Shown piece by piece: positions 4,836 through 5,451 of a stretch of DNA of 60,000 nt. The position numbers and the translations under genes were made by a program. The notes beneath the pieces were generated by a model. That model was given only the letters and a program-made list of their open reading frames with translations. It was not told where the DNA came from and made no database searches. Position 1 is the first letter of the stretch, and each line of letters begins with the position of its first letter. The DNA is from Squalus acanthias (lineage: Eukaryota), in contig CM059432.1 in NCBI GenBank assembly GCA_030390025.1, positions 89,592,001 through 89,652,000 of the forward strand, written 5' to 3'.

Positions 4836-5451
4836 ACCAAGGGCTAGAAATTCACTTTAGCCCAGGAATGGGTGGGGTCATTAGAAAAGTTGGAGAATTA
4901 GCCGCAGGTGCTAATGCTTTAGACTGCACGGAGTGTCTGTGTGGGAGACTTCAGATGGCCTTGCGGGACGCCCTCGACCAGTTCTGGGCCTGGAAGGCCC
5001 AGCTGTAGACTGCACCACCTCAGCATAGGCGGCAGCAGTCTGGGCTGGCTAGATGACAGGCAGCGACAAGTGCAATGGCGGCATGGCAGTGGTGAGATCA
5101 GGAATGCTGTCATCCTGAGAGAAGACATCAGCTTCCTGCTCCACTGACCCACTGCCACTCACCCGGGGCAGCACCTCAGCATCCCTAGCAATCTGCGCAA
5201 AATTCGTGCTCACTGCTCAAAAAAATGATTGGAGTTCTAATTCATGTCTTATAGCCCAAGCTCATTGGCGTTACACTCAAAGGGTAGAGTCTAATCGCAA
5301 ATCATGATTGCCATGGGCTCTTTTCGATACTTAAAGGGGAGGTTCATCGATGCTACAAAACCTCATTCTCAACATTGCTGGCTGTGCAGCTGTCTCAGCA
5401 AGCAGAAGCATGACAAGGAGAAGAAGCTGGAGGACTGAATCAGCTATACTC

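Follow-up and report, generated by a model that had tools for sequence, protein, structure and literature searches.

Repair-mediated duplications are short, non-tandem copies of DNA that interrupt a transposon, come from a nearby donor on the same chromosome, and have microhomology, a filler, a deletion, or a short duplication at the junction (PMC2671141). They were described by Pace, Sen, Batzer, and Feschotte in 2009, who detected them as transposons split by other DNA. According to the excerpts available of that paper (PMC2671141), 824 of 1136 human cases have a donor within 5 kb, the duplications have a mean length of 162 bases and a maximum of 619 bases, and poly-A is present at 0 of 39 proximal breakpoints. 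The same excerpts report these duplications in chicken and zebrafish (80 zebrafish cases) and give their density as 0.08 to 0.65 per Mb of transposon DNA.

Three other systems are related to some degree, each as far as the accessible text of the source describes it. Mu killer of maize (PMC3440606) carries ~1300 bases of inverted 5' sequence of the mudrA transposase gene together with two TIRA ends, has been shown to be transcribed, and silences an active element; the model in which its hairpin arises by read-through is disputed in the same source. The Ac/Ds composite insertions (bioRxiv 10.1101/2020.01.07.897926) combine two neighboring members of one element family with an inverted duplication of element DNA, and the alternative transposition that forms them engages the element termini. 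Templated insertions made by polymerase theta or by fold-back (PMC2895639, PMC11724301) copy nearby DNA into a break with little homology, and those that arise by fold-back in yeast are mostly 5 to 34 bases long and inverted.

Here we describe a 265-base insert at positions 4931 to 5195 of a window of cartilaginous-fish DNA (the whole stretch that was analyzed, 60,000 nucleotides), which we regard as an ordinary case of the known local duplication type. It shares with the published repair-mediated duplications (PMC2671141, in the portion available) the form of a short, non-tandem copy that interrupts a transposon, a short filler or duplication at the junction, a size within their range, and the lack of poly-A. 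Its likely donor lies close by on the same chromosome, and its site is empty in other copies and probably at an orthologous locus. It is an insertion of at least 50 bases (265) that splits a transposon with the two halves in register, these halves being collinear both with a second copy of the element and with the empty-site joints described below. However, it would fall outside the operational filters as given in that part of PMC2671141, since it exceeds the ad hoc 5-kb limit by 24 bases and has a many-copy donor. Like Mu killer, it is transposon sequence inverted relative to its own copy within one locus, but it is 265 bases long at 90% identity, derives from the tail of a Myb gene, is accompanied by one element end, and lies among dead copies. 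The mark of Mu killer, a duplicated terminus and 5' transposase sequence with two terminal repeats, is absent here: the insert comes from an exon 3 and has no terminal repeat. As in the Ac/Ds insertions, there are two neighboring elements of the same family and inverted duplicated element DNA, but the junctions here are all internal, 90 bases inside the recipient element and ~1.2 and 1.8 kb inside the likely donor. As in the templated insertions at breaks, nearby DNA was probably copied with little homology, but unlike the yeast fold-back insertions, the insert is 265 bases long, direct, and 5 kb away from its source.

Three pieces of a Harbinger-type family

The window contains no N and is rich in decayed repeats. 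Its first 12.3 kb hold three pieces of one Harbinger-type family: fragment C (1 to 757, minus strand), which is a distant piece of the family; copy A (4841 to 7731, plus strand), which retains the left end and a Myb-like gene but, of the transposase gene, no more than the tail; and copy B (9019 to 12323, minus strand), which has both terminal repeats and a TTT target duplication (9016 to 9018 and 12324 to 12326). Copy B is marked as PIF/Harbinger by a Myb/SANT-like gene (Pfam PF13873), a DDE transposase (PF13359, DDE_Tnp_4), terminal repeats, and the 3-base target duplication; the corresponding marks in copy A are its Myb gene, the transposase tail, and one end only. Copies A and B have unrelated flanks and differ at 150 of 1486 aligned bases even where they match best; they are therefore separate insertions.

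The left terminus of copy A (4841 to 4930, plus strand) begins at 4841 with a 14-base terminal repeat, which was aligned to the two ends of copy B, and continues as subterminal sequence up to a break; it is 77% identical to the left end of copy B. The rest of the subterminal sequence lies at 5196 to 5451 (plus strand), along with a promoter whose position is a prediction. A motif scan of A, B, and C found reverse CCAAT, TATA-like, and initiator-like motifs common to all three; in copy A these are at 5228 and 5264 (reverse CCAAT), 5328 (TATA-like), and 5363 (initiator-like), with a predicted start near 5360. One CCAAT box of the family has been lost from copy A through a 15-base deletion, placed near 5280 by the A-B alignment and at 5285 by the consensus of loose contig ends. 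The Myb/SANT-like gene of copy A (5452 to 7190, plus strand, end approximate; PF13873, E value of 1.9e-5) has exons at 5452 to 5694 and 5922 to 6084 and a third from 6237. It has an altered last splice acceptor, a first stop at codon 203, frameshifts, and a 145-base deletion at 6615. Within exon 3, the segment at 6819 to 7083 (plus strand), 1623 bases downstream of the insert, is complementary to it. The 3' remnant of the transposase gene lies at 7410 to 7731 (minus strand); its start is approximate, and 7731 is where the alignment to copy B ends. The rest of that gene and the right terminus are missing, and 9019 to 9572 of copy B have no match beside copy A.

Copy A is truncated by the 3' fragment of a LINE (7727 to 8204, plus strand), which we take to be CR1 type and which differs at 13 of 369 positions from the LINE end at 24654 to 25022. 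Copy A does not resume after this LINE tail; therefore, a deletion accompanied or followed the LINE insertion. Both genes of copy B are also broken, the Myb gene with a first stop at codon 90 and the transposase gene with stops and frameshifts. As read from the sequence, copies A and B are both pseudogene-bearing, dead elements. A protein search with the exon 3 frame of copy B gave two matches among 2227 candidates, both labeled sawshark, which at 51 to 52% identity are too distant to be usable for counting diagnostic residues.

Positions 5196 to 7731 of copy A and 9573 to 12235 of copy B form a convergent inverted repeat with arms of ~2.5 kb that are 82 to 87% alike and separated by 1.8 kb. 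The terminus is the least similar part (77% identity) and exon 3 the most similar (~90 to 95%). A further distant Harbinger transposase fragment, ~70% identical to A and B, lies at 34556 to 34730. By coordinates, ~45% of the DNA from the start of the window to 10484 belongs to the family of A and B; therefore, neither a donor from the same family nor an antisense outcome needs a special cause.

The insert and its junctions

The presence of the insert at 4931 to 5195 (plus strand) is confirmed. The original prediction had described it as a copy of 10220 to 10484 with about six substitutions, and the alignment agrees: 6 of 265 positions differ, with no gaps (blastn E value of 1e-129). The reverse complement of copy A's own segment at 6819 to 7083 differs from the insert at 26 of 265 positions. 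Among insert, A, and B there are 27 variable columns, in 21 of which the insert matches B, in 5 of which A matches B (4965, 4982, 5051, 5082, and 5083, the letters private to the insert), and in 1 of which the insert matches A. The insert thus agrees with B in 21 of the 22 columns where A and B disagree, which bears out the claim that its diagnostic bases match copy B and not copy A. At the substitution rate between A and B (150/1486), six or fewer differences in 265 would be expected with a probability of 6e-7. The six differences from B represent five events, since 5082 and 5083 are adjacent. Two of them had been ascribed to CpG decay in copy B. This stands for 4969, the single column in which the insert matches A, where copy B has a CpG C-to-T change at 10258. 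It does not stand for 10254/4965: here copy A and 98.6 to 99.7% of the family depth in four sequencing runs have the letter of B, so the change lies in the insert.

The segment at 4841 to 4930 and its continuation from 5196 align in register and without gaps to the left end of copy B. A CG at 4929 to 4930 (plus strand) recurs at 5196 to 5197 on the other side of the insert, which is either a 2-base duplication or a 2-base filler, and removal of 267 bases recovers the subterminal sequence of the Harbinger family. As had been predicted, then, the insert interrupts the subterminal sequence of copy A with CG at both junctions and has no terminal repeat and no poly-A. It is a direct copy, in the orientation of the donor segment (10220 to 10484, plus strand), which belongs to exon 3 of the Myb-like gene of copy B; because copy B is inverted relative to copy A, the insert is antisense to exon 3 of copy A, upstream of whose Myb-like gene it lies, in agreement with the initial description. 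The copied fragment ends ~60 bases before the stop codon region of the gene in copy B. The donor segment is 5024 bases from the right end of the insert, or 4546 bases when the LINE fragment is subtracted, although part of copy A was lost in the LINE event as well. No structure was detected inside the insert (z = -0.03 against shuffles).

The empty site in other family members

We aligned contigs of four public runs (three studies, four organisms) to positions 4400 to 5900 at 85% likeness. They belong to a set of 22 candidate runs, each of which contained less than half of the query words and among which no RNA run appeared, the latter being no evidence either way. Over the element, the summed depth exceeds that of the flank by four to five orders of magnitude, which is not a copy number but indicates that this Harbinger family is very abundant. 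All four runs contain joints that bypass the insert (from 4928-4930 to 5196-5200). The precise joint from 4928 to 5196, a skip of 267 bases with 2 letters that fit both sides, is present in 15, 13, 6, and 7 contigs of the four runs, among the 15 of 228 joints available. Loose contig ends at 4931 and 5195 run on as ordinary exon 3, and the letters private to the insert occur in the family depth at background level (0.3 to 6.6%, including all third letters). Based on the empty-site joints and the background level of the private letters, we conclude that the insert is not a feature of any sizeable subfamily. In the four runs, other copies have the empty site.

One run, X1, bears on the orthologous locus. 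It has two abutting contigs at single-copy depth. One covers the flank from 4400 to 4758 with 3 differences in 359 bases at a depth of 4.6, and the next, record 2 (215 bases, depth of 3.8) overlaps the flank record by 29 bases, aligns to 4730 to 4930 with 6 differences and 1 gap, and stops exactly at the junction, leaving 15 bases unaligned. If the insert were carried, the alignment would reach 4945; therefore, copy A is probably present and empty in this relative. The contigs thus point to a probable orthologous copy A without the insert in a related organism, and the insert probably arose after copy A had landed. Flank differences from runs X1, X10, and X11 are 3/359 and 3/235, and run X4 has two flank contigs with 0 differences from the window. 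No junction-spanning contig occurs in any run, X4 included, among the 32 of 89476 pieces available, so that within these pieces the insert is seen in the window sequence alone; contigs drop copy-specific variants of abundant repeats, and this count proves nothing. A search of metagenome contigs for the exact junction pattern gave 0 matches, which is uninformative for an animal.

Rare letters shared with copy B

The depth comparison covers 6 of the 21 columns in which the insert matches copy B (among 40 of 206 rows available), and in all 6 the family majority has the letter of copy A. At 5027, 5095, 5123, and 5128, the nonmajority letters together make up 0.9 to 2.4% of the depth in each of the four runs, which is the level found at the insert's own five private sites (0.3 to 6.6%). 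The nonmajority letters make up 7 to 16% of the depth at 5098 and 12 to 26% at 5001. These depth shares are not copy counts, and the share of the family was judged from four runs. Based on the four rare shared letters, we conclude that the donor is copy B or a lineage that makes up at most 1 to 2% of the family depth.

At 5161/6853/10450, the insert, A, and B share a letter found at only 1.1 to 2.8% of the family depth, which may reflect an old common lineage or an exchange between the inverted copies. Because this letter is rare in the family and yet common to all three, rare letters can mark lineages. It lies in a 46-base run that is identical in insert, A, and B (6836 to 6881 in copy A). 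We rejected this run as evidence of gene conversion between A and B, since a divergence of 10% across 1486 bases should by itself yield roughly one run of the kind.

Probable origin of the insert by repair

Taken together, the rare letters shared with copy B, the empty sites elsewhere in the family, and the probable empty orthologous site support the earlier proposal of a templated insertion from B by break repair or template switching. It is highly probable that the insert is a direct copy of part of copy B, made once at this locus during repair of a break 90 bases inside the end of an already resident copy A, that is, a repair-mediated duplication. The inferred course of events is as follows. 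A double-strand break or collapsed fork would have opened at 4930 in copy A; one free end would have primed on copy B, ~5 kb away, with little or no microhomology; 265 bases would have been copied from this template; and the new strand would have been released and joined to the other end, leaving the CG doubled. Most likely, the insert has since been a neutral scar, aging in a dead, truncated element (five events relative to B).

Several features of the priming step were examined. Strict microhomology is 0 at both ends of the insert, and the offset matches, 4 and 3 bases long, each come close to what chance would give (P = 0.10, 0.22, and 0.10; jointly 0.03, after the measures had been chosen), so we rejected microhomology as a priming signal. 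Homology-guided invasion of copy B by the broken ends of copy A was likewise rejected as the direct route, since it would copy the terminal region of B in register and in sense orientation, and the segment seen differs. Nor does the insert have the marks of a retrocopy made by target-primed reverse transcription: there is no poly-A or LINE tail and no target duplication of at least 4 bases. Private changes number 4 events on the insert and 1 on copy B, which is slightly lopsided (P = 0.375). Divergence between insert and B is 6/265, or 2.3% (95% range, 0.8 to 4.9%). At the epaulette shark mutation rate of 7e-10 per base per generation given in the accessible part of PMC10587355, this would correspond to an age of millions of generations, an estimate that is unreliable given the species, the generation time, and possible error-prone synthesis; relative dating by flank differences is safer.

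Template switching is an established part of gap repair at Ds and P elements, and it provides the precedent for an alternative cause of the break in which B would still be the donor. Copy A, both of its ends then intact, would have been excised by a transposase acting in trans, the gap would have been refilled from the sister or homologue, and synthesis would have jumped to copy B after 90 bases and then back by 2. The jump is close to the terminus of copy A, as such abortive gap repair would have it, and the 2-base step back accounts for the doubled CG. However, the entire element would have had to be resynthesized and to have had an intact right end, which copy A now lacks, there is no excision footprint beside 4841, and there is no sign of an active transposase at that time. 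We therefore regard excision as a less economical cause of the break at 4930, and an unlikely one.

It is very unlikely that the donor was instead a distant copy from a small B-like lineage, serving as a DNA or RNA template, with copy B merely a close relative that happens to be nearby. The great abundance of the family would allow this, as would the position of the insert wholly within an exon, the fact that five of the six differences between insert and B are private to the insert, and the rare letter at 5161 that A and B have in common. But the four rarest shared letters limit the lineage to ~1 to 2% of the family depth, so that a B-like copy only 5 kb away would be a coincidence of that order, the insert has no poly-A, and most donors are local in the cases that the available part of PMC2671141 describes.

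That a piece of B was stitched into A during assembly is scarcely credible, even though no junction-spanning record is among the pieces available (X4, with its 0-difference flank, included) and record 2 of X1 stops at the junction: a mis-join would reproduce B or the consensus letter for letter, whereas the insert has five letters absent from A, B, and the family majority, retains the older C where B has decayed, and is bounded by a clean 2-base duplication, and contigs that lose copy-specific variants of abundant repeats, seen here as 32 of 89476 pieces, say little on this point.

A subterminal motif lies ~75 to 90 bases inside the element, at both ends in copy B and at the left end in copy A and fragment C (C, 641 to 671, minus strand; A, 4926 to 4930 with 5198 to 5209; B, 9094 to 9105 and 12228 to 12239). 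In fragment C it forms a perfect hairpin of 12 bp with a 7-base loop (-15.3 kcal/mol as DNA), and in copy A it is a palindrome of 5 bp in which the insert splits the border between arm and loop. At a guess, the motif is a candidate Myb binding site or a breakage-prone site.

The insert as a possible silencer

The original prediction had also proposed that a transcript starting near the terminus could fold into a dsRNA stem of ~265 bp, conceptually similar to Mu killer. On the reading considered here, RNA that begins to the left of 4931 would pair the insert with exon 3 of copy A and give rise to small RNAs against the family. The stem itself is geometrically possible. Plus-strand RNA pairs at 249 of 265 positions (239 Watson-Crick and 10 G-U pairs, with 16 mismatched) to form a duplex of -525 kcal/mol, with arms of 265 bases that are 90% complementary and 1623 bases apart, and there is precedent in maize, where MuDR and Ac are silenced by transposon DNA duplicated in inverted orientation (PMC3440606; bioRxiv 10.1101/2020.01.07.897926, as available in part). 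However, the remaining evidence runs against this proposal, and we find it extremely doubtful. The Myb transcript of the element itself has its predicted start 160 to 170 bases downstream of the insert, so that an outside promoter would be needed, and there is no hint of one. The window showed no host gene: 1 of 89 non-element frames of at least 75 codons matched Pfam, and this was a reverse transcriptase (short exons would be missed). Rfam gave 0 matches in the window; both of these tests are weak.

The inverted repeat formed by A and B is also far larger than the stem formed by the insert. The stem has one perfect run of at least 21 bases (46 bases), whereas the A-B repeat, with 2171 matched columns, has 22 such runs totaling 628 bases, and a 524-base arm that includes the same exon 3 segment pairs with copy B at -1035 kcal/mol, approximately twice the value for the insert stem. 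Because A and B already form a larger inverted repeat, fold-back at this locus was possible before the insert was there, and any read-through RNA would also contain the A-B runs. Moreover, at 12 or more of its 265 positions the insert departs from the letter of the family majority, the part copied is the tail of the Myb gene and not transposase or promoter, and A and B are both pseudogenes, with no active copy known from the window. In its fullest form, the idea would be that the insert is transcribed from an outside germline promoter and pairs with exon 3 or contributes to the A-B fold-back, giving small RNAs that help to shut down the abundant Harbinger family in one cartilaginous-fish lineage, and that relatives without the insert lack this silencer. 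If true, this would be a vertebrate counterpart of Mu killer built by a chance repair event, but we give it only a minute chance. Among the literature found on Harbinger, shark, transposon, and piRNA, no title describes such a locus.

Significance of the insert and other repeats in the window

The insert is one clean example of repair-mediated duplication in cartilaginous fish, a group outside the survey as the available text of PMC2671141 presents it: the word "shark" does not occur in that text, and we found no paper on repair-mediated duplication in shark. Nor did a literature search find a paper that treats templated sequence insertion together with polymorphism, target site duplications, and a donor. 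The analysis further indicates that rare shared letters can pinpoint a local donor even when its family has many copies; cases of this class are discarded by the published pipeline, as described in the same excerpts. Given the published densities of 0.08 to 0.65 per Mb of transposon DNA, such events should be numerous in a repeat-rich genome. Presence or absence of the insert may be useful as a marker for comparing related species, and the insert would have greater importance only if insert-specific small RNAs exist.

Three other repeats of the window deserve mention. An imperfect palindrome of 460 bases at 52409 to 52869, 75% self-complementary, is probably a miniature inverted-repeat element. 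An inverted pair of 360 bases at 38625 to 38985 and 40407 to 40766 (87.5% identity, 1.4 kb apart) lies inside LINE-like sequence, includes a 94-base part that is 97% alike, and is possibly another local inverted duplication. Finally, three tandem units of 147 bases, the first two of which are 99% alike, are present at 28262 to 28702.
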